A DNA stretch of 64,000 bases from an uncultured delta proteobacterium (GCA_963808625.1 CAWEHK010000029.1:32001-96000), one strand, 5' to 3'. Shown: positions 1,815 to 13,069, numbered from the stretch's first letter. Made by a program: numbers and translations. The notes: generated by a model not told the origin, from the letters alone.

Positions 1815-1960
1815 TGTCTCAGGAAACAGAACTGTCTCTTAATTGAATTTGAGACACCATCGCTCATTCGATTTTGTGAACTTTGGATGGCAGACGAACC
1901 ATCTCGGCTGGTTTCCACTTTCCTTGTTATCTGTGGATGATTTGTCTCAAAAGTGTTTCA
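1815..1960 (+). promoter_or_regulatory. Putative sigma-54 enhancer array, copy 1
   Basis: TGTCTCA 1815, TGTCTCT 1833 - 10 nt - TGAGACA 1850, TGTCTCA 1943, TGTTTCA 1954. Same layout as 7027-7176. Confidence 0.7.
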
Positions 1961-2053
1961 GGATAAAGCCGCACTGGCTGCCAATTCTTCTTCCTTTTCT
2001 TCAACATGTTGAAAATGTTATGGTTGCGGCGGCGACCATGGGGGGCTCTTGTT

Positions 2054-2069
2054 TGGCACGGCTCTTGGA
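2054..2069 (+). promoter_or_regulatory. Putative sigma-54 -24/-12 promoter
   Basis: TGGCACGGCTCTTGGA: consensus TGGCACG -24 box, but -12 reads TTGG instead of TTGC. Distance from the enhancer array is nearly the same as for the promoter at 7273. Confidence 0.6.
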
Positions 2070-2197
2070 TTTCCGTTCTATCGGGAAATAGGAGGGGATC
2101 GGCTTTCGGCAGGAAGTTTTGGAGAAATGGTTGAGGTCGGAGGCTGGCATGGAAAAGGCCCGAACCAGGTGGACATGGAGCAGACAGGAGGTTAACG

Positions 2198-2404
2198 GTG
2201 GCGAAACCGGAAGAAATATATCAGTGCCAGACGGTGAACTGTGGTTATCTTTATGATCCCGACCGGGGTGATAGAAAAAGTAAGACGCCTAAGGGCACCG
2301 CGTTTGAGGACCTCCCCGACGATTGGAAATGCCCCGTGTGTGGCGCCGGCAAAAAGATGTTCCGACCGCTTCGCGGTCCCGGGTCGGTAGCCGAAGAAAA
2401 ATAG
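2198..2404 (+). CDS. Rubredoxin
   Basis: [12 protein letters not shown]...[22 protein letters not shown] before a GTG start. Confidence 0.92.
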
Positions 2405-2478
2405 TGATGGGCATGAATGGGATCATACGTTCCAGGGCGGAAGGGACATTGGGCGTCTGAGGTGCTCGGGAGGTGATG

Positions 2479-2670
2479 ATGGCGAAGGAACATATTCCGG
2501 CAGGAAGCAAGGTCGCTCCGGGAAAATATCGTTGCAATGCCTGTGCGAACCAGTATGAATGCACCCTGGAAGGTGAAGAGCTTCCCCTGTGTCCGGTTTG
2601 CGACAGTGCCTCGTGGCGGACCCAGCAACTCTCAAGAGAGGCGAGTGGGAGGAAGAATGAGCGCCCATGA
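2479..2670 (+). CDS. Small zinc-ribbon/rubredoxin-like protein
   Basis: GKYRCNAC...LPLCPVC (two CxxC pairs); GGAGG RBS upstream. Confidence 0.7.
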   Translation: MAKEHIPAGSKVAPGKYRCNACANQYECTLEGEELPLCPVCDSASWRTQQLSREASGRKNERP

Positions 2671-2878
2671 TGTGACGATTTTTCGACCGTATGACTTTGC
2701 CGTTGGCGAAAAGATCACCATTGCAGGCGGACCGCGCCGGGGTGATTGGGAAGTCATCGGGTTAAGCGAGCGGAAAGTGCAACTGCGCTGTCCGGTTACG
2801 CAACGCGAGGTGGAGTGGGACCGCTTCTGTTACTACGTGGAAAATGTCGCGGAGGTGGAATGGCCTCATCTTGACTGA
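2657..2878 (+). CDS. Small hypothetical protein (73 aa)
   Basis: GGAGG RBS; overlaps the end of the previous gene; MSAHDVTIFRPYDF...EWPHLD. Confidence 0.65.
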   Translation: MSAHDVTIFRPYDFAVGEKITIAGGPRRGDWEVIGLSERKVQLRCPVTQREVEWDRFCYYVENVAEVEWPHLD

Positions 2879-2949
2879 CATCTAGGCCAAGAGCAGTTTT
2901 TACGCGCCAATTTGGCGCCTATTAGAATGACCATGACCAGGAGGATGCG

Positions 2950-3387
2950 ATGGAACTTCCGGTATACGTAACTGTGGATGAAGTAAAGAGGGTGTGCCAG
3001 GCCCTCAAGATCAGTGACTGGACGGCCCTGACCGAGGCCAAGGTGCGGCCCGAAGAGGCGGCTGTTGTTCTTGCCGAGATAAACCAGGAAGGCATGCCGA
3101 TCACCCTGGAGCGGTTCTGCCGGGGACTCGAGGTGGAGCTGGAGCACGGTATTCGTTTTAAGGACGCCAATGTGACCAACAATCACCCGATCCTTACGGG
3201 CAAGATCGTCCTGGCTCATTTCAAGGAAATGCTTGACTACTACGAACGCCTTGAGGTTGCCGAACTGGAAGGTGATTTGCTGAAAGCGATGGTTGCCGGT
3301 AACGCTCAAAAGGTTGCATCCTACTACCGGAGACTTGTTGCAGCGAAGCTTGAGCTGATTCAGGCTGAGTCGGAGCAATTGCCTTAG
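2950..3387 (+). CDS. DUF5661-like protein
   Basis: GLEVELEHG...TGKIVLAHFKEMLDYYERL motif; GGAGG RBS. Confidence 0.7.
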   Translation: MELPVYVTVDEVKRVCQALKISDWTALTEAKVRPEEAAVVLAEINQEGMPITLERFCRGLEVELEHGIRFKDANVTNNHPILTGKIVLAHFKEMLDYYERLEVAELEGDLLKAMVAGNAQKVASYYRRLVAAKLELIQAESEQLP

Positions 3388-3419
3388 TGCAACTCCGCAT
3401 CAATGAGTGTCCGAAGCGA

Positions 3420-3577
3420 GATCGTCATACCGGCGGAAGCAGGGGTCCAGGACCCCACGGAAAAACTGGGTTCCGGCTTTCGCCCATCTGCGTTAAGTTG
3501 ATGAGTTTTCACGTGATACTGAATGCTTACAGAAATGACGATTGAGAGCGTCCTGACGATTTTGAGATAGTTTCTCT
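3420..3577. repeat. REP-like palindrome / degenerate MITE
   Basis: gtcataccggcggaagcaggggtccag...ctgggttccggctttcgcc resembles 13272-13340; right end ttttgagatagtttct resembles 13353-13368. Confidence 0.55.
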
Positions 3578-3605
3578 AGGGTCGAGGGCGAAATGGGGTG
3601 GCCTT

Positions 3606-5528
3606 TTGAAGGTTATGGAAGGGAGTATTTTCTTGAGGAGAGCAAGAATATCAGCTGTTGACTTGAAGTGTGGGATGCCTCTCCTGCTGTTTTTGCTCTT
3701 CTTCGTTACGGCGTGTGCAACGCCGGTCGGTGTGACCAGGATCGATCCCCGTAGTGTCCATCAGGAACTGACGAGCAATGTCCTCTCTACGGGGACGCCG
3801 AGCGGGTCCGACTGAAATTGTGCTCAATCGGCATGATCTTCATGAGCGGTTCGCGAAAGATCCGGAGGCTGCTCTTGGCGCCCTTCACCAGATCGTTGTT
3901 TCCGGGAGAGGTGGGGCGGACGAAATCGCTGCCCTGGCGGAGCTCTCTTTTCTTCACGCCGAAAAAACCAGGAAACGCTCCTACTACCTGGCGGCATCAG
4001 TCTATGCCTGGGCTTTTCTCTTCCCGGAAGGGGCAGGTGAGCCCCCTAGACCAGCTTTGACCCTCGTTTTCGCCTCGCTTGCGATATTTACAACCGGGGG
4101 CTGACGTCGGGGTTCCAATCGGAGGATGGCTCGGCGGTGGTGCTCCATTCCGGGACCTTCGAGCTGCCCTTCGGCAAACTGGAAGTGGATTTCGACCGTA
4201 CCTCGATGGAATGGTATGGCCGGGAGCTGGTCGATTTTGCAACCAGTTGCCGAGCTTGATGTGTGGGGTTTGAGGAACCGTTATCGCCAGTCCGGTATCG
4301 GAGCCCCGCTGGCAGCCAGGACGGTACTTCCGGATGCGAGCAAGGGGTCTAAGGACCTGGTCGGAGCGAAAGTCCGGGTGCCGGTGACCCTGGTCCTGCG
4401 CCTCGGTGACGTCAAGAATGAGTTGGGTGAGGGCTTCATCCGTCGGCTCTATGAGGATTTACGCTACCGATGACGTGGCTTCGGTGCGCATCGGTGAGCG
4501 TACGGTTCCCCTTGAAGCGGAGCCTACCGCTTCCCTGGCCGTCGTGCTGGCGGACCCGAATCTCTGGGAGATGGAGCTCAAGGCCTTCTTCGGGGGAGAA
4601 TACATACGAAAATTCCTGCACCAAACCTCGCGTCAAAGCCAGCTCGTTGCCCTGCATCCCTATCAGCCCGGCCTTATCCCCGTGGTGTTTGTGCATGGCA
4701 CCGCTTCCAGCCCAGGCCGCTGGGCCGAAATAACCAATGAACTCCGTAATGACCCCTTGATAAGGGAGCATTTCCAGTTCTGGTATTTCTTCTACGACAG
4801 CGGGAACCCGATCGCCTATTCGGCCATGCTGCTCCGGGACGCATTGACCGAGACGTTGCAGAGGCTCGATCCGGAGGGGAAAGACCCGGCCCTTCACGAG
4901 ATGGTCATCATCGGGCACAGCCAGGGTGGCCTCCTCGCCAAGATGACCGCAATCGACTCGGGAACAAAGTTTTGGGACGGTTTGAGCAACAAACCTTTCG
5001 ATCAGGCCGAAATGAAGGAAGAGACGCGCGACCTCCTGCGCCGGGGGCTCTTTGTTAAACCGCTTCCCTTTGTGAAGCGGCTGATTTTTATTGCTACCCC
5101 CCAGCGGGGCAGTTTCATCGCCGGATGGGGCATCGTCAAACGGCTCACGGGCCTGCTGCTGAAACCTGCCACGACCGTCCTGTCGATCACCACCGATGTC
5201 CTTTTTCTGGGCAAACGGATGCCTTCGCCATGAACCTGCAAAAACGTGTGCCCAGCAGCGTGGATAACATGAACCCCCGCAACCCCTTCATCAAGACCCT
5301 GGCCTCAATCCCGGTGGCCCCGGGTGTGGCTTATAACTCCATCATTTCGGTCAAGCAGAGACCGACATCGAGAACGGGGATGATGGCGTTGTGAAATACC
5401 AGAGCGCCCATCTGAGCGATGCCGAGTCCGAACGGGTGGTGCATTCGGACCACTCGTGCCAGGGCAATCCCTACACCATCGAAGAGGTCCGACGGATCCT
5501 GCTTCTTCAAGTCTCAACCAAAAATTGA
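3606..5528 (+). CDS. Alpha/beta-hydrolase (lipase/esterase) lipoprotein, split by several frameshifts
   Basis: Lipobox-like FFVTAC; PVVFVHGTASSP, GHSQGG nucleophile elbow, DGVVKY and HSDHSCQ motifs spread over consecutive ORF fragments. Confidence 0.75.
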
Positions 5529-5698
5529 CCATGACCGAGTCCCTCCGGCGGCGGCATCGCCGATACTGATGCTGCCGCCATTTGTTCGGCCTGCCCGTTT
5601 GTGATTTTCCTTTTTTCTTCCCTTTTTTGAAAAATATCTGTAGTTTTAGCCAGTTCGAAGGAAGAGTCGCCCTGCCCCATAGCGATCGAGGCGTTAGG

Positions 5699-7036
5699 AT
5701 GAACAATTTGGACCTGGAAAGCCTGTTAGCCGACAAGAGAAACCTGGAGCAAATCCTTGACAACCTGATGGAAGGGATCATTGCTCACGACAAAGGCCGG
5801 CGCATCCTGTTTTTCAACCGGGCGGCCGAGGCTATCACGGGGTTTCGGAAAGAGGAAGTGATCGGCAGGGACTGTCATGTGGTTTTGGGGGGGCCCTTTT
5901 GTGGCAGCAGGTGCTCGTTTTGCGGGGAGGCGCCCAGTAGTCTCACCCATGCCAGTTATCCTTTAAACATCCTCACGAAGAGCGGGGAGACTCGCCACAT
6001 CGAAATGTCCGTGACGGGGATGACGGATGAAAAGGGGTGTTTTGTCGGCGTCCTGGCGGCCTTTCGCGATATGACCGACCTGATCGGCCTGAGGACTCGC
6101 CTGGGTGAACTTACGAGTTTTGCCGGAATCATCGGCCGCGACCAGAAGATGCTCAAGATTTTTGAAGAAATTCGGGATTTGGCGACGAACGATTTTACCG
6201 TGCACGTTAGCGGCGAAACAGGCACGGGCAAGGAATTGGTAGCCGCCGCCATCCACCATGAAAGTCACCGTAGCGGCGGACCGTTTGTGCCCGTAAACTG
6301 CGGGGCGCTCCCGGAAGGATTGCTCGAAAGCGAGCTCTTCGGTCATGTGAGGGGGGCGTTCTCCGGGGCGATTCGCGACAAAAAGGGGCGTTTCGAGCTT
6401 GCCCACGGCGGCACGATTTTCCTCGACGAAGTGTCCGACCTGCCGAAACCGATGCAGGTGAAGTTGCTCCGGGTCCTCCAGGAGGGCGCTTTTGAACGCG
6501 TCGGAGGGGAAAAAACCATCACCGTCGATGTGCGGGTGATCAGCGCCGCCAATCGTGACCTGAAGCGGGAGATGGAAAAACAGAATTTTCGGGAAGACCT
6601 CTATTATCGGTTGAATGTCGTACCGATCCGTTTACCGGCACTGCGGGAGCGGAAAAACGACATTCCTCCGCTCGTTGCCCACTTTCTGGAAGAGGCGGCA
6701 AAGCGAGGCCAGGGTTCGAAAGGAATCTCCAAAGAGGCCCTCTCGCTCATGATGAAGTATTCCTGGCCGGGCAATGTCAGGGAGTTGCGGAATGCCGTTC
6801 ATTTTGCTCTGGTCACTTCGAAAGGGAGCGTGATCACTCCGGAGAATTTGCCCATCGAACTCCGTAAAGACGCTTTGGGCGGTGCCAAACCGGGACCTTC
6901 CAAGAAGCTTGGAGAAGATGCGGTCATCGCAGCGTTGAAGGAATCAGGCGGCAACAAAGCCAAAGCAGCCAAACTCCTCGGCGTCGGCCGGGCAACCCTG
7001 TACCGTTTTCTTGCAGACCTGCATGGTGTTTCATAA
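5699..7036 (+). CDS. PAS-domain sigma-54-dependent transcriptional activator
   Basis: N-terminal PAS with C-x8-C-x3-C-x2-C; GETGTGKE, ESELFGHVRGAFSGA (GAFTGA variant), WPGNVREL; C-terminal Fis-type HTH. Confidence 0.93.
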   Translation: MNNLDLESLLADKRNLEQILDNLMEGIIAHDKGRRILFFNRAAEAITGFRKEEVIGRDCHVVLGGPFCGSRCSFCGEAPSSLTHASYPLNILTKSGETRHIEMSVTGMTDEKGCFVGVLAAFRDMTDLIGLRTRLGELTSFAGIIGRDQKMLKIFEEIRDLATNDFTVHVSGETGTGKELVAAAIHHESHRSGGPFVPVNCGALPEGLLESELFGHVRGAFSGAIRDKKGRFELAHGGTIFLDEVSDLPKPMQVKLLRVLQEGAFERVGGEKTITVDVRVISAANRDLKREMEKQNFREDLYYRLNVVPIRLPALRERKNDIPPLVAHFLEEAAKRGQGSKGISKEALSLMMKYSWPGNVRELRNAVHFALVTSKGSVITPENLPIELRKDALGGAKPGPSKKLGEDAVIAALKESGGNKAKAAKLLGVGRATLYRFLADLHGVS

Positions 7037-7176
7037 TACACTTATGTCTCATAATTATTTGTGAGACAGTTTCCGGGTCATCCCATGCGGCCCTCTCGCG
7101 GCTGCAAAGCGCATTGCCGGGACCCGAAAACGCCCATTGCCCTGCCGCACCCTTCGGGTGTTTCACGGATGTCTCA
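7027..7176 (+). promoter_or_regulatory. Putative sigma-54 enhancer array, copy 2
   Basis: TGTTTCA 7027, TGTCTCA 7045 - 10 nt - TGAGACA 7062, TGTTTCA 7159, TGTCTCA 7170. Confidence 0.72.
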
Positions 7177-7272
7177 GTACCTGCCGAATAATCTTCCTGC
7201 AGGCTTCATGTCTTTTGATTAACAATCCGAAGTTACTAGTATTTATCACTTTGAAGCTGAGCCGCAGGGAAA

Positions 7273-7288
7273 TGGTATGGACCCTGCA
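7273..7288 (+). promoter_or_regulatory. Putative sigma-54 -24/-12 promoter
   Basis: TGGTATGGACCCTGCA fits GG-N10-GC and lies upstream of the rubrerythrin operon. Confidence 0.7.
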
Positions 7289-7342
7289 TTAAACGAGCAG
7301 TGTGTTGCAATAACAAGCTACTATTCTGCCGGAGTGTGCCGC

Positions 7343-7552
7343 ATGATAAGGCCTTGTAATGAAAAGATTCTCAGGACCCTGGAGGTGGCTGAGCGGATGA
7401 TCGAAATCGCAGACGAGGGCGACATGGTGCGGGAAGACGGCGGATGTGGCGTGTTGTATGGCGTTCTCCGGGATTCTGCGTATAAGATCAAGAAGCTGGC
7501 GGAAGAGGAAAAGGATGCCCACGTGAGGAAGGGGTGGTGGGGTCCGGCTTAA
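7343..7552 (+). CDS. Small helical hypothetical protein, first gene of the operon
   Basis: MIRPCNEKILRTLEVAERMIEIADEGD...GCGVLYGVLRDSAYKIKKLAEEE; GGAG RBS upstream. Confidence 0.7.
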   Translation: MIRPCNEKILRTLEVAERMIEIADEGDMVREDGGCGVLYGVLRDSAYKIKKLAEEEKDAHVRKGWWGPA

Positions 7553-7633: not shown

Positions 7634-8128
7634 ATGACGAGAACAGAACAAAATTTGTTGGATGCTTTCGCGGGGGAATCTCAGGCCAACCGCAAGTACC
7701 TGGCTTACGCCAAACAGGCGGACAAGGAGGGTTATCCTCAGGTCGCGAAACTTTTCAGGGCCGCCGCTGAAGCCGAAACAGTCCATGCTCATGCCCATCT
7801 GCGCACTCTTGGCAAGATCAAGAGCACCGCCGACAACCTGAAAGATGCGATTGCCGGGGAGACCCATGAGTTCAAGAGCATGTATCCGGCGATGATCGCA
7901 GCTTCCCGGGAAGAAGGCAATAAGGCGGCAGAACGCAGCTTCAGCTATGCCAACGAGGTCGAGGAATACCACGCCGGTCTCTACGAAAAAGCTCTCGAAA
8001 AGATGGCGGCCCTGGAGCAAGTCGATTACTATGTCTGCTCGGTTTGCGGCTACACCTGTGAAAAGGAGCCGCCGGGGACATGTCCGGTGTGCGGTTCGAA
8101 CGCCAAGGTGTTTTTCAAGGTGGACTGA
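7634..8128 (+). CDS. rbr: Rubrerythrin
   Basis: AFAGESQANRKY, EAETVHA and ETHE diiron motifs plus C-terminal CSVCG...CPVC. Confidence 0.93.
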   Translation: MTRTEQNLLDAFAGESQANRKYLAYAKQADKEGYPQVAKLFRAAAEAETVHAHAHLRTLGKIKSTADNLKDAIAGETHEFKSMYPAMIAASREEGNKAAERSFSYANEVEEYHAGLYEKALEKMAALEQVDYYVCSVCGYTCEKEPPGTCPVCGSNAKVFFKVD

Positions 8129-8140
8129 GAGGAGGTCAAA

Positions 8141-8644
8141 TTGGCAAAAGCACTTGTTGTTTTCGCGACCAGAACCAATCAGACGAGAAGGATAGCCGAA
8201 CTGATCGCCGAAGGCATGCGCTTCGAGAGCGTCGATGTAACCCTGGTGAATGCCAACGAAGTCGAAAAGAAGGGCATCAAGCTGGACGATTATGATGCTT
8301 ACGTCCTCGGGTCGGCTACTTATCACGGAGAAATGCTTCAGGCGATGAAGACCTTTCTCTTTATGCTCGAAAAAGCAAACGTGGAAGGCAAGGTGGGAGG
8401 CGCTTTCGGGGCCTTCGGTTGGAGTGGAGAAGCTCCCGGTCGAATTTTTGAAACGATGCAAAACGTATTCAACATGAAGATGGTGAGAGATGCGTTGCGG
8501 CTGAAGTCTGCTACCCTGGGGGGCGGCATCAAAATGGCCCAGGATTATGGCAGGGAAATTGCCAAAAACTTGCTTGAGGCAGGAAACGTTTCTCTGTGGT
8601 TTCTTCGGCGATTGCTTGGATGTTTGGAAGCCCCGTGTTTTTGA
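8141..8644 (+). CDS. Flavodoxin-domain protein
   Basis: [32 protein letters not shown] start after GGAGG; exact C-terminus uncertain. Confidence 0.85.
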
Positions 8645-8658
8645 AAAAGGAGATCTTT

Positions 8659-9033
8659 ATGGCGGAACAACTGCAGGTCTATAAATGTGAACTGTGCGGA
8701 AACATTGTTGAGGTTCTTCATGGCGGTGGGGGTGAACTGGTCTGTTGTGGTCAGCCGATGAACCTGTTTGTCGAGAACACCGTGGATGCGTCCAGGGAAA
8801 AGCATGTACCGGTCATCGAAAAGACGGACGCCGGGGTAAAGGTAAAGATTGGCTCGGTAGCGCATCCCATGGAAGACAAACATTACATCGAGTGGATTGA
8901 AATCGTGGCGGGGGACAAGGCATACCGCCAATTCCTGAAACCGGGTCAGGCCCCGGAGGCTTTATTCTGCATCGATGCCTGGCCGGTGACGGGGCGGGAA
9001 TACTGTAATCTGCACGGCCTTTGGAAGGCCTAG
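8659..9033 (+). CDS. dfx: Desulfoferrodoxin (superoxide reductase)
   Basis: YKCELCGN...[33 protein letters not shown]. Confidence 0.95.
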
Positions 9034-9124: not shown

Positions 9125-10465
9125 ATGGACGTGCTTTGGCTCTCGCGTTTGCAGTTTGCGGCTGCAACGTTTTTTCATTTCCTCTTCGTCCCCCTCACCT
9201 TGGGGCTTTCGGTCCTGATCGCGATCATGGAAACGAGGTATGTCAGGACGGGCGACGAAGAATACAAAAGGATGGCGAAGTTCTGGGGCAAGCTTTTCCT
9301 GATTAATTTCGCCATCGGCGTGGTGACCGGAATCACCCTGGAATTTCAGTTCGGCACCAACTGGTCACAGTATTCTCGATACGTGGGCGACATTTTCGGG
9401 TCGCTGCTGGCCATCGAGGCTTCGGTAGCTTTTTTTCTTGAATCAACTTTTATCGCCGTATGGGCGTTCGGGTGGAACAAGCTCTCTCCCAAGGCCCACG
9501 CGGTGAGCATCTGGCTCGTAGCTGGTGCGTCCAACCTGTCAGCGGTCTGGATTCTTATTGCCAACGCCTGGATGCAGCATCCCGTCGGCTACGTGATCCG
9601 TAACGGTCGTGCGGAACTGACCGACTTCCTGGCGGTGGTCACCCAGTCGGCGGCAGTCCACCAGATTATCCACACGGTCAGTGGCGCGTACATCCTGGCC
9701 GGATTTGTCGTCATGGGAATCAGCGCTTACCATCTGCTGCGCAAGCAGAACACGGTGTTTTTCAATAGATCATTTCGTCTGGCTCTTGCCTTTGCGCTGA
9801 TCTTTTCCGTTGTCTCAGTCGTTCAGGGCCATGCCAACGGGGCCAAGGTCGCCGCCATTCAACCGGCCAAGCTGGCGGCCATGGAGTCGCTGTGGGAGAC
9901 CAAGAAAAGTGCTCCTCAATACCTCTTTGTCATTCCTGATGAAAAGAACGAACGGAACCTCGTGGAAATTGGCGCGATTCCGGGGGCTTTGAGCATGCTG
10001 GCATACCACGACACCGAAGCGACCGTGAAAGGACTGAAGGATTTTCCGCTGGACGAGCGGCCCCCGGTGACGCTCCCTTTTATCTCTTTCCGGATTATGG
10101 TGGGGCTCGGCTTTCTGTTTCTGGCGCTGACTCTATACGGTTGGTTCAAGCGCAATGACCTCGAGAACAATCCGCGTTATCTGAAAGTCATGCTGTTCGC
10201 CATTCCCCTTCCCTATATTGCCAATGAAGCGGGATGGATGCTGGCGGAAGTCGGGCGGCAGCCGTGGGTGGTTTATGGCGTCATGAAGACCAGCGCGGCG
10301 GTCTCCCCGATCAGCGTCCCTCAGGTCATGACGTCGCTGGTGGCTTTTGTCCTGGTCTACTCCCTGCTCGGGGCCGCTGCTTTCTTCCTAATGGCCAGGC
10401 ATGCACGGAAAGGGCCTGAACCTTACCAGTCAGCCACGGAAACGGGAGGTGCCGAAAATGCTTGA
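9125..10465 (+). CDS. cydA: Cytochrome bd oxidase subunit I
   Basis: LSRLQFA...HFLFVPLTLG, EFQFGTNW, QPAKLAAME, EVGRQPW. Confidence 0.95.
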   Translation: MDVLWLSRLQFAAATFFHFLFVPLTLGLSVLIAIMETRYVRTGDEEYKRMAKFWGKLFLINFAIGVVTGITLEFQFGTNWSQYSRYVGDIFGSLLAIEASVAFFLESTFIAVWAFGWNKLSPKAHAVSIWLVAGASNLSAVWILIANAWMQHPVGYVIRNGRAELTDFLAVVTQSAAVHQIIHTVSGAYILAGFVVMGISAYHLLRKQNTVFFNRSFRLALAFALIFSVVSVVQGHANGAKVAAIQPAKLAAMESLWETKKSAPQYLFVIPDEKNERNLVEIGAIPGALSMLAYHDTEATVKGLKDFPLDERPPVTLPFISFRIMVGLGFLFLALTLYGWFKRNDLENNPRYLKVMLFAIPLPYIANEAGWMLAEVGRQPWVVYGVMKTSAAVSPISVPQVMTSLVAFVLVYSLLGAAAFFLMARHARKGPEPYQSATETGGAENA

Positions 10466-11495
10466 ATCGATCTGGTTCATTCTGTGGGGTGTGTTGTGGG
10501 CGGTTTATTTCATGCTGGACGGATTCGACCTGGGCCTGGGCACGCTCATGCCGTTTCTCGCTAAAACGGAGACCGACAAACGGGTCATGCTCCGGGCCAT
10601 GGGGCCATTCTGGGACGGCAACGAGGTCTGGCTCATCGCGGCCGGAGGGGTGACCTTCGCGGCCTTTCCGACCACCTATGCCGTGATGTTCAGCGGCCTC
10701 TATTCGGCGTTGATGCTGATCCTCTTTGCCCTGATCCTGCGCGGCGTGGCAATTGAGTTCCGGAACGATGTGGACCATCCCACCTGGAAAAAGGTCTGGG
10801 AGATCTGCCTGTTCGTGGGCAGCTTTCTCCCGGCGCTGCTGCTCGGGGTGGCTTTCGCCAATATCTTCCAGGGGATTCCCATTGACGCCGATGGGATTTT
10901 CCAGGGGACTCTGTTTTCCCTGCTGAATCCCTATGGTCTTTTTGGCGGCGTGCTGTTTGTGGCCTTGTTTTTGTTGCACGGATGCCTGTGGTTGGTGGTC
11001 AAAACCGAAGGTCCGGTGAAGGAAAGGGCGGCGGCGCTTGTCAACAAGCTGTGGGCGGTGCTGGCCGTCATCGCCGTAGGATTTTTGATCGCCACCTGGT
11101 ATGCCACGCGTCTCTATGACAACTACATCCAGAATCCCTTAATGTATGTCGTGCCGATCATTTTGATCCCGCTGATCGTGGTCGGAGCGCTCATCATGGT
11201 GCGGGTCTATGCGAACAAAGGGCATTGGTGGTCCGCCTGGTTTGCCTCGAGCGCTCTCATCGTTGGGGTTACCCTTTTTGGCGTGGCCGGGCTCTTCCCG
11301 AACCTCCTGCCCTCGAGCCTCAATCCCGCTTTCAGTTTGACAATTTACAACTCAGCGTCGAGCCAGCTCACTTTGAAGATCATGCTGGGCGTCGCCTTGA
11401 CTTTTGTCCCGGTGGTGATTGTCTACCAGGCGTGGGTCTACAACCTGTTCAAGGACCCCGTGACCGAGGCGGAAGCCGAGGAAGCCTATCATTAG
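10458..11495 (+). CDS. cydB: Cytochrome bd oxidase subunit II
   Basis: LDGFDLG, GPFWDGNEVWL, FAAFP; overlaps the cydA stop. Confidence 0.95.
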   Translation: MLESIWFILWGVLWAVYFMLDGFDLGLGTLMPFLAKTETDKRVMLRAMGPFWDGNEVWLIAAGGVTFAAFPTTYAVMFSGLYSALMLILFALILRGVAIEFRNDVDHPTWKKVWEICLFVGSFLPALLLGVAFANIFQGIPIDADGIFQGTLFSLLNPYGLFGGVLFVALFLLHGCLWLVVKTEGPVKERAAALVNKLWAVLAVIAVGFLIATWYATRLYDNYIQNPLMYVVPIILIPLIVVGALIMVRVYANKGHWWSAWFASSALIVGVTLFGVAGLFPNLLPSSLNPAFSLTIYNSASSQLTLKIMLGVALTFVPVVIVYQAWVYNLFKDPVTEAEAEEAYH

Positions 11496-12154: not shown

Positions 12155-13069
12155 TTAACTGTTCCCGTCAATGGTTTCGAACAATCGCAGGATGCGCTGG
12201 TAGGGCTTAAGTTCGTCAAGCCATGTGCCCGGAATGGCGTCGAGGCCGAGATGAGCCCCCAGAACCATCCCCACCACCATACCGCGGGCAGCTGAGTCGC
12301 CTCCGGCCATGACATTCTCGATGAGAGCCTCCTCTAAATCGCTCTCATATTTGCCGATGAGATGCACCACAGCGGGAAAAGCCCCCCGCGTGTCGCAGCT
12401 TTGACCAAAGTTGGCGACAGCCTCGTGCGAGCCGACTTCGAGGCTCTGCAAACAGTTCGCAACCCAGTCTGCAAACGGGGTCCCGCCAAAGGATTCCTGC
12501 GCTGTCTCGGTCATTGCTGCGGTCGGGGTCTTGCCCTGCAATACCTTAAACGTTACCCTGGCAAAGAAGTCCGCACCGGCAATCACCATCGGGTTATTGT
12601 GGGTCATTGCCGTCTGCGCGCGCGCATGGATCACCAGTTCTTCCGGATGGTTGCGATACCGATAGACGAGGGGGGCGATTCGAGCCGCTCCCGCCAGGTC
12701 CGTCGAGGCTGAGCCCGATCCGGTTGGCGGCTTTCCGTCCGAGAAATTCCTGAGCGTCCCTTTTGTGGCCTTGTCAATATAGCCGTTGTAGTGTTCAAAA
12801 AGCGCTTTCCACCTCCGGGCAAAATCCTCGAGATCGAACCCGGAACATGAGGCGATGGACTCCAACAGGACCAGGGCCTGATCCCCATAGTGAGTGAATT
12901 CGCCGCGGTCTTTGGTGGGGTGATACGAAGCCGGTTCAGGCTTCAGCAGGTGTTCCACCCGCCCGAAGCGGCGCCCGATTTCCGTGGTGTCATACATCCA
13001 GTGCGCCCCCAGCGCGAGCGAATCCCCCACAAAGGAAGCAATTACCATGGCTCTTGCCTTGTCTTCCAT
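12155..13069 (-). CDS. ADP-ribosylglycohydrolase family protein
   Basis: VGDSLALGAHW, THYGDQ, AMTHN and NVMAGGDSAARG motifs. Confidence 0.88.
   Translation of the reverse strand: MEDKARAMVIASFVGDSLALGAHWMYDTTEIGRRFGRVEHLLKPEPASYHPTKDRGEFTHYGDQALVLLESIASCSGFDLEDFARRWKALFEHYNGYIDKATKGTLRNFSDGKPPTGSGSASTDLAGAARIAPLVYRYRNHPEELVIHARAQTAMTHNNPMVIAGADFFARVTFKVLQGKTPTAAMTETAQESFGGTPFADWVANCLQSLEVGSHEAVANFGQSCDTRGAFPAVVHLIGKYESDLEEALIENVMAGGDSAARGMVVGMVLGAHLGLDAIPGTWLDELKPYQRILRLFETIDGNS

Follow-up and report, generated by a model that had tools for sequence, protein, structure and literature searches.

A probable enhancer array repeated before two operons points to a sigma-54 oxygen-defence regulon, with a likely iron-sulfur redox sensor, in an uncultured deltaproteobacterium

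Introduction

How superoxide reductase, rubrerythrin, and cytochrome bd are controlled in sulfate reducers and syntrophs is largely open. A 64,000-nucleotide stretch of DNA from an uncultured delta proteobacterium (GCA_963808625.1, CAWEHK010000029.1:32001-96000; here called the window, with positions counted from its first letter) raises the question of whether two operons for such proteins answer to one regulator. Operon 1 comprises genes for rubredoxin, a zinc-ribbon-like protein, a 72-residue protein, and a DUF5661 protein, while operon 2 comprises genes for a 69-residue protein (s69), rubrerythrin, a flavodoxin-like protein, desulfoferrodoxin, and the two subunits of cytochrome bd oxidase (cydAB). 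A gene for a sigma-54 activator with PAS, AAA+, and helix-turn-helix (HTH) domains lies between the operons. A reading made from the sequence alone had described an almost identical series of heptamers, ending in a -24/-12 promoter element, before each operon and had proposed that the activator co-regulates the two. We conclude that both arrays are probably enhancers of one sigma-54 oxygen-defence regulon with a likely iron-sulfur (Fe-S) redox sensor.

Results

Anatomy and uniqueness of the arrays

The heptamers and -24 boxes described in the sequence-only reading were present at all 12 positions given there, and the spacings of 18, 17, 110/114, 11, and 111/114 were all correct (Table 1). Its five sites stand, but a sixth half-site at offset +7 had been overlooked, which is degenerate in both copies (GGAAACA at 1822-1828 in copy 1 and TAATACA at 7034-7040 in copy 2) and reads TGA(G/T)ACA in most relatives. 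The first, seemingly lone heptamer is therefore the left arm of a zero-spacer palindrome. The distal part of each array is a 42-bp block with half-sites at offsets 0 (forward), 7 (reverse), 18 (forward), and 35 (reverse), arranged as the zero-spacer palindrome TGTCTCA.TGA(G/T)ACA, four nucleotides, and a second palindrome with a 10-nucleotide spacer; a direct pair of half-sites follows nearer the promoter. The first palindrome of copy 2 runs over the activator gene's final two codons and its stop (7025-7036).

The arrays are unique in their genome. The pattern TGTCTC-N12-GAGACA occurs twice in the source assembly of 4,805,929 bases (4.8 Mb), both occurrences being these copies, and a matrix made from the blocks of other genomes scored the two copies at 47.7 and 36.1 bits and everything else in the assembly at 12 bits or less. 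These are also the only two places in the whole assembly with at least four relaxed half-sites within 200 bp. The matrix scan revealed no further regulon members in the assembly, and no half-sites were found before perR, the DUF134 genes, or the other rbr and rub paralogues of this genome. The DNA between the motifs was unlike in the two copies, as had been supposed, with 353 and 38 of 500 shuffles scoring as high; the likeness therefore resides in the sites and does not reflect a recent duplication.

Conservation of the array in relatives

The activator's nearest relatives are mostly records of Syntrophobacteraceae, with other Desulfobacterota next, and include that of a named isolate, Desulforhabdus sp. 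TSK (L016). Distal blocks were located in 80 loci of such relatives by a pattern allowing six mismatches. The block was found in 44 of the 80, and of the 36 loci without it, 7 end at or before the activator's stop codon. The array is conserved across many related lineages. After other-strand matches and two six-mismatch frame variants had been dropped, 47 blocks were kept for the matrix, which was consequently trained on the same relatives' loci as the 44/80 count. Half-site positions agree in 46 to 47 of the 47 blocks at most positions (about 2 bits), and the spacers carry little information. The block spacer is one base off in L004 and L013.

In most loci the array overlaps or abuts the end of the activator gene, and the overlap of the first palindrome with the activator's last codons and stop, seen in copy 2, recurs in many relatives. 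In L044, L046, and L049 the block lies 1.8 to 3.8 kb from the activator, directly before s69, indicating that it belongs to the operon and is no by-product of the coding end. Ten genomes in which the activator stands alone were examined. In all five of those searched with s69, an array-headed s69 operon was found elsewhere, the spacing being changed in two; of the other five, searched with a pattern, three had the array elsewhere. The regulon is thus not local only, since in other genomes the array can also be distant from the activator gene.

A copy 1-type block precedes the rubredoxin gene in L001, L005, and L008. Two loci from one genome bin (L006 and L047) are cut before this block and retain a proximal site and the promoter. 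Within the 1.4 kb read, L004 shows DUF5661 but neither a rubredoxin gene nor an array. In nine loci (L021, L023, L025, L029-L031, L038, L039, and L060) the rubredoxin gene and s69 lie together behind a single array, and of all the evidence these merged operons speak most strongly for a single regulon of both window operons. Homologues of the zinc-ribbon-like gene occur behind the activator's own array in L021, L023, L025, L029-L032, and L038, and a homologue of the 72-residue protein lies inside the rbr operon of L060. Two genomes (G139 and G300) have two arrays each.

The sequence-only reading had also taken the layout as a sign of selected spacing. This is borne out inside the 42-bp block and between the proximal pair and the promoter, whereas the distance from one block to the other is loose. 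Of 49 arrays examined, 37 matched well; in these the proximal pair, which is in most cases a direct repeat at 11 bp, begins 104-127 bp before the TGG, and the distal-to-proximal distance ranges from 103 to 686 bp. In several loci the proximal pair is down to one clear half-site. The block distances cluster near 113-116 and 123-128 bp, and helical phasing of the blocks is not claimed, the Rayleigh test giving p of about 0.03 at 10-10.5 bp on distinct values with no clear peak.

An origin of the arrays by chance, by recent duplication, or as a repeat element or recombination site would have to account for these data. Copy 2's first half-site does lie in coding sequence, and resolvase sites are also built of inverted pairs with unequal spacers. 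Such an origin is nevertheless contradicted by the unrelated spacers and the presence of only two copies in the genome, by the -24/-12 box that always follows the array at a narrow distance, by the persistence of the block away from the activator's coding end, and by the lack of a recombinase among the flanking genes, and we regard it as extremely improbable.

Further arrays in G300 (L198:2742-2942), G139 (L199:1002-1238), and G281 (L200:1665-1853) have a small Cys-rich zinc-finger-like gene as the first or second gene behind them, and these genes are candidates for extra regulon members.

The activator that probably reads the arrays

The window activator has the Sigma54_activat AAA+ domain, the GAFTGA-type loop, and the HTH (HTH_8) of a sigma-54 activator, together with a lid domain. 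The loop reads GAFSGA, which is listed as a functional variant in published work (PMC4641369), and the HTH is of the Fis type with the recognition segment GVGRATLYR. Among the matches listed, a fold search with the activator returned AAA domains only.

Another 300 genomes, sampled evenly from the phylum, were surveyed, with the reversed block as a control. The strict block was found in 9 of the 300 and the control in none. All nine are among the 18 genomes with the closest lid and HTH region, and none of the 282 others matched. In a quick tree of the AAA domain (65 of 66 rows, one fragment being left out), 38 proteins with an RA(T/S)(L/F)(Y/H)R helix formed one side of a branch (Shimodaira-Hasegawa-like approximate likelihood ratio test [SH-aLRT], 96), apart from OrpR, the redox activator of Desulfovibrio, and from the other activators of this genome. 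In G249 and G031 the PAS domain with the Cys triad described below is replaced by another Cys-rich PAS domain while GVGRATLYR and the adjacent array are kept, so the array follows the HTH and not the sensor. Activators with an SRNTLYR helix (L226 in G267 and L228 in G014) have a different repeat behind the gene. Only this activator, of 22 open reading frames examined in the genome, has the Cys triad or the RATLYR helix. The proposal that the activator at 5699-7036 co-regulates both operons is thus supported by comparative evidence, namely array conservation, HTH co-occurrence, and operons merged elsewhere, and on this evidence the arrays are very probably bound by it.

The arrays might instead be read by another activator or by a repressor such as PerR, the neighbouring activator being linked to them by position only. 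The genome encodes more than 20 other sigma-54 activators and a PerR-like protein, and the same half-site occurs in the AcoR site of Bacillus as described in PMC12648084, so that other HTH domains can read it. Strict array matches are confined, though, to genomes with the RATLYR clade, the array touches the activator gene's end in most loci, the deltaproteobacterial PerR boxes given in PMC545781 look different, and neither perR nor any of the other rbr and rub paralogues has half-sites in the region before it. We consider a different reader quite unlikely.

Several observations weigh against binding of the arrays by this activator and their action as enhancers of one regulon. Half of the 18 closest-HTH genomes miss the strict block, several of them having a second spacer 1-2 nucleotides shorter, and in G173, G030, and G204 the genes of some clade members are not followed by an array. 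The pattern search gave no match in two of its five lone-activator genomes. The assembly is 84.6% complete, and a second activator with the same helix could be missing from it. The surveyed genomes are mutually related, so that the counts overstate the case and are pattern evidence, not statistical proof. Copy 1 has a non-canonical G at -12, and copy 2's integration host factor (IHF) site is degenerate, with at least three mismatches.

The clade varies in its input domains, which include unassigned N-terminal, GAF, further PAS, and receiver domains (L166-L174 among others), some 150 extra N-terminal residues (L113, L114, L116, and L119), and GAF-like domains (L105 and L106), with a nearly invariant HTH. 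The SRNTLYR activators L226 and L228 are receiver-domain proteins whose TGTCAC/GTGACA repeats touch the stop codon, before a gene that we take to be CheW-like, and represent a second case of an operator at a regulator's own 3' end.

Promoters and IHF-like sites

A sigma-54 promoter's GG at -24 and, ten bases from it, TGC at -12 are present in copy 2, with conserved repeats about 80-250 bp upstream as for sigma-54 enhancers. Both of the -24/-12 elements noted previously are present, but the -12 element of copy 1 is TTGG, not TTGC. In 47 related promoters this element is TTGC in 26, TTGG in 14, and others in 7. TTGG is typical of promoters whose first gene encodes rubredoxin or a zinc-ribbon protein, copy 1 included, a pattern suggestive of old paralogy between the two promoters of the window. 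No sense-strand sigma-70 match was found in either window upstream region, and the sigma-70 and terminator scan gave counts at chance level. The assembly contains rpoN (PF04552 match) as well as IHF/HU genes.

Sites with at most one mismatch to WATCAANNNNTTR, which we take to be the IHF consensus, lie between the proximal pair and the promoter in 20 of 46 arrays, compared with 5.3 expected from shuffles, 9 of the 20 being minus-strand sites located 51-53 bp before the TGG.

In the mechanism that we propose, the activator encoded between the arrays would bind the six TGTCTCA half-sites, the DNA would loop over the IHF-like site, and the activator would then open the -24/-12 promoters of both operons, its activity being set by the predicted Fe-S cluster in the PAS domain. 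By analogy with the three sites of NorR, a hexamer might be built from three dimers on the two palindromes and the direct pair, an idea to which we give even chances.

The predicted Fe-S sensor

The PAS domain of the activator contains the motif C59-X8-C68-X3-C72-X2-C75. Across the 61 relatives aligned, C59, C68, C72, D58, H60, and H30 are invariant, whereas C75 occurs in 53. OrpR (DVU2106) of Desulfovibrio vulgaris Hildenborough has a C-X8-C-X3-C motif at the same PAS position, and in the published account it binds a redox-sensitive [4Fe-4S] cluster, requires C52, C61, and C65 for sensing, is active while the potential is low, and undergoes inhibition by its PAS domain at rising potential (PMC8359166). 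Since the Cys triad lies at the OrpR position and is needed there, this activator is also likely to be an Fe-S sensor, and by this analogy a cluster on C59, C68, and C72, with C75 or H60 as the fourth ligand, is probable. It counts against such a cluster that the acidic residue proposed as the fourth ligand in OrpR is V here; it is E or D in 40 of the 61 relatives.

Direction of control

The same analogy leads us to lean cautiously toward the logic of OrpR, in which the activator would be on while the cluster is intact and reduced. A reduced cluster would leave the activator on, and iron-rich defence proteins would be stocked while the cell is anoxic; oxidation of the cluster would lead the PAS domain to shut the activator off. 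In BA69, a Syntrophobacteraceae genome from an oxic-anoxic bioreactor, the available data report a run of genes, hypothetical-rbr-cydA-cydB, with anoxic and oxic normalised means of 0.026 and 0 (hypothetical), 0.086 and 0.005 (rbr), and 0.062 and 0.007 (cydA) (PMC11451228). Its gene order is that found behind the array in its relatives, and it may itself be array-headed.

The same source also holds points that tell against this direction. The cydB gene of BA69 is flat (0.019 versus 0.017), and counts are very low. In the sister genome BA129, cydAB are higher in oxic than in anoxic phases (0.033 versus 0.011 and 0.026 versus 0.005), and the authors themselves describe cyd and rbr overall as not changing in a pronounced way (PMC11451228). 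Defence genes switched off under oxygen are also counter-intuitive.

The same regulator, sites, and cluster could work in the opposite direction, with oxidation or loss of the cluster freeing the activator and O2 or peroxide inducing both operons. All named targets remove O2, superoxide, or peroxide, the sigma-54 activators NorR and PexR are described as turned on by stress (PMC12754779), and the PAS domain is unlike that of OrpR in its 31% identity, extra Cys, and invariant His; the higher oxic values of the BA129 cydAB genes (PMC11451228) also fit. Against this, the only characterised Cys-triad PAS activator is, according to its published description, off when oxidised (PMC8359166), and the BA69 hypothetical-rbr-cydA genes, together with dfx in BA69 and BA129, are lower in oxic phases (PMC11451228). 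Within the available data the BA129 cydAB genes were not found beside a rubrerythrin gene and may represent another paralogue. Induction by oxidants is in our view possible rather than probable.

A third option is that the cluster responds less to redox state than to the supply of iron or Fe-S, with iron proteins made only when iron suffices. Iron is a constituent of rubredoxin, rubrerythrin, desulfoferrodoxin, and cytochrome bd alike. AdhR is likewise cited as responding to iron and oxygen (PMC12754779). No iron-uptake or Fe-S assembly genes were found among the array-headed genes read, though, and a Fur/PerR-family protein is present separately, making control by iron supply improbable.

The s69 protein

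The first gene of operon 2 encodes a protein modelled as a two-helix hairpin (predicted local distance difference test [pLDDT], 95) in which D, C, R, E, and H residues are conserved. It had no Pfam or NCBIfam match, belonging only to unnamed Atlas clusters, no solved relative by profile (best E value of 0.49), and no fold-search match with an E value below 0.001, the weak matches including ferritin-like hairpins. Homologues of s69 were found in 26 of the 300 other genomes, of which 20 have a Cys-PAS clade match (in G100 as a fusion of PAS and s69), 2 are sensor swapped, and 4 have clade members with other N termini. In seven genomes with a Cys-PAS clade match, s69 was not found, and in G221 a distant s69-like frame lies behind the array. 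The tight linkage of s69 to the regulator fits a role as a feedback partner of the activator.

In G100 (L197:3789-4817) a single frame that lacks AAA and HTH domains combines an N-terminal domain without a Pfam match, a Cys-triad PAS domain, and an s69 homologue. The frame follows dfx, rubredoxin, and related genes, has cydAB directly behind it, and is either a deletion or a real sensor-s69 fusion.

Genes of the window and their surroundings

The features of the two operons are listed in Table 1. Between the operons, an alpha/beta-hydrolase (lipase-like) gene at 3606-5528 spans several frames and is apparently broken by frameshifts and stops; the piece at 4406-5233 matches PGAP1/Abhydrolase_6, and such a gene is beside the activator in only 1 of the 80 loci (L004). 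A palindromic intergenic repeat at 3411-3495, 3' of DUF5661, gave 45 BLAST lines in the assembly and is likely an element of the repetitive extragenic palindrome (REP) or miniature inverted-repeat transposable element (MITE) kind. A gene for an AAA_14 and DUF4143 ATPase (587-1747) ends 68 bp before array copy 1 and was not found beside the array in the 80 related loci. On the minus strand, 12155-13069 encodes an ADP-ribosylglycohydrolase, with homologues at most 7 kb from the activator in L001, L043, L048, L054, and L056. Genes of the DVU0772 family (NF045682) and for a 57-residue winged-helix protein occur inside array-headed operons (L135:1771-2127 and L138) and convergent on the activator in L065-L080, and the window genome has a homologue on contig C49.

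Table 1. Positions of the array elements, promoters, and genes in the window
Feature	Position	Strand	Remarks
Distal 42-bp block, copy 1	1815..1856	+	Offset-7 site degenerate; matrix score 36.1 bits
Proximal direct pair TGTYTCA-N4-TGTYTCA, copy 1	1943..1960	+	Begins 111 bp before -24 TGG
IHF-like site, copy 1	2002..2014	-	1 mismatch to WATCAANNNNTTR; position common to many relatives
Sigma-54-type promoter, copy 1	2054..2068	+	TGGCACG-N4-TTGG; predicted start near 2080
Rubredoxin	2198..2404	+	PF00301 above cut-off
Small zinc-ribbon-like protein, two CxxC	2479..2670	+	PF07295 below cut-off
72-aa conserved protein	2660..2878	+	No Pfam or NCBIfam match
DUF5661 protein	2950..3387	+	PF18905
Sigma-54 activator (PAS, AAA+, HTH)	5699..7036	+	PF00158, PF25601, PF02954
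Distal 42-bp block, copy 2	7027..7068	+	Matrix score 47.7 bits
Proximal direct pair, copy 2	7159..7176	+	Begins 114 bp before -24 TGG
Sigma-54-type promoter, copy 2	7273..7287	+	TGGTATG-N5-TGC; predicted start near 7299
s69, 69-aa helical-hairpin protein, first gene of operon 2	7343..7552	+	No family
Rubrerythrin	7634..8128	+	PF02915 and PF21349
Flavodoxin-like protein	8141..8644	+	PF00258, PF12724
Desulfoferrodoxin (superoxide reductase)	8659..9033	+	TIGR00320 above cut-off
Cytochrome bd oxidase subunit I (cydA)	9125..10465	+	PF01654
Cytochrome bd oxidase subunit II (cydB)	10458..11495	+	PF02322

Discussion

The regulon is best read as an undescribed sigma-54 oxygen-defence control system. 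In the full-text literature searched, with most subscription papers and RegPrecise outside it, no description of this operator or regulon was found, consistent with the remark in the sequence-only reading that the operator was not recognised as a described one. In the available part of a comparative study, PerR boxes were reported for a small subset of such genes and no conserved element for rbo-rub-roo (PMC545781). In the sections available, a paper from 2025 mentions no redox-linked sigma-54 activators of obligate anaerobes besides OrpR and AdhR, and describes neither as controlling oxygen-defence enzymes (PMC12754779). The present analysis offers a candidate regulator, an exact operator, two promoters, and sensor residues. 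With the 42-bp signature the regulon can be traced in genome bins, and s69, DUF5661, and small zinc ribbons stand out as unstudied candidate members; if the proposal is true, it would describe a new control system for how anaerobes prepare for oxygen. More speculatively, and we consider this doubtful, the system could be a phylum-wide oxygen-defence master switch of Desulfobacterota outside Desulfovibrio, in which an Fe-S activator hexamer would act on six half-sites in three geometries, the sensor would be swapped between lineages while the operator and the AAA-HTH core stayed fixed, and s69 would travel along as a dedicated feedback partner (an anti-activator or metal donor).

The PerR regulon of Desulfovibrio and other deltaproteobacteria overlaps in its targets, among which rubrerythrin and rubredoxin-like proteins are described, but PerR is a repressor of the Fur family with other boxes (PMC545781), whereas the control predicted here is positive, sigma-54 dependent, and extends to dfx and cydAB. 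The PerR-like gene of this genome is on another contig. The DVU0772 family, found inside some array-headed operons, presumably also belongs to the PerR regulon. AcoR of Bacillus has a site containing the same half-site (GAGACA/TGTCTCA), and many relatives of the activator are labelled AcoR by the Joint Genome Institute (JGI). As described, though, the AcoR half-sites stand back to back with a 2-nucleotide gap and the targets are acetoin genes (PMC12648084), and no acetoin dehydrogenase genes were found among the array targets.

The closest known likeness in sensing is OrpR, which is also a one-component PAS-AAA-HTH sigma-54 activator and is reported to serve two nearby operons with IHF involvement (PMC8359166). 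The two proteins differ in their AAA clades (quick tree, SH-aLRT 96) and in the loop (GAFSGA here, GAFTDA in OrpR). An OrpR-type protein flanked by orp-like genes (L196) showed 31% identity in the PAS domain and 55% in the AAA domain and no alignment in the HTH; a relaxed OrpR pattern, which matched 102 of 301 genomes with many control matches, was used only to find this one locus. The operators differ as well, with six TGTCTCA half-sites here and, in the published account, one 17-bp GGGCGYRTTTTGCGCCC palindrome per OrpR promoter, as do the targets, which are oxygen-defence genes here and the orp genes for OrpR (PMC8359166). GGGCGYRTTTTGCGCCC was absent from both window upstream regions and had no exact or end-variant match in the assembly; one match with a single mismatch occurs somewhere in the genome. 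The orp operons are not beside the activator, whose neighbours are redox genes. Identity of the activator with OrpR is thus ruled out by AAA clade, loop, recognition helix, operator, and targets. On another contig, L081 (G000:C48:48543-51803) holds a small orp-like cluster with DUF134-like, NifX-like, and NifU-like genes, without an OrpR-type activator and with no sigma-54 box upstream.

In its predicted multi-site control the system resembles NorR-norVW (PMC2831303) and PexR-ahpC/katB (PMC12754779), described as sigma-54 detoxification activators for which at least three upstream sites build the active oligomer. NorR and PexR are reported to sense through an iron-binding GAF domain and to use tandem copies of one palindrome; the window activator has a Cys-containing PAS domain only, with no GAF domain, and the NorR model scored far below its cut-off. 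Unlike those of NorR and PexR, the sites described here are of three geometries (inverted with a spacer of 0, inverted with a spacer of 10, and direct at 11 bp) and fall into two blocks. The activator would thus be like OrpR in sensing and like NorR and PexR in the multi-site control of detoxification, and it is a member of neither group.

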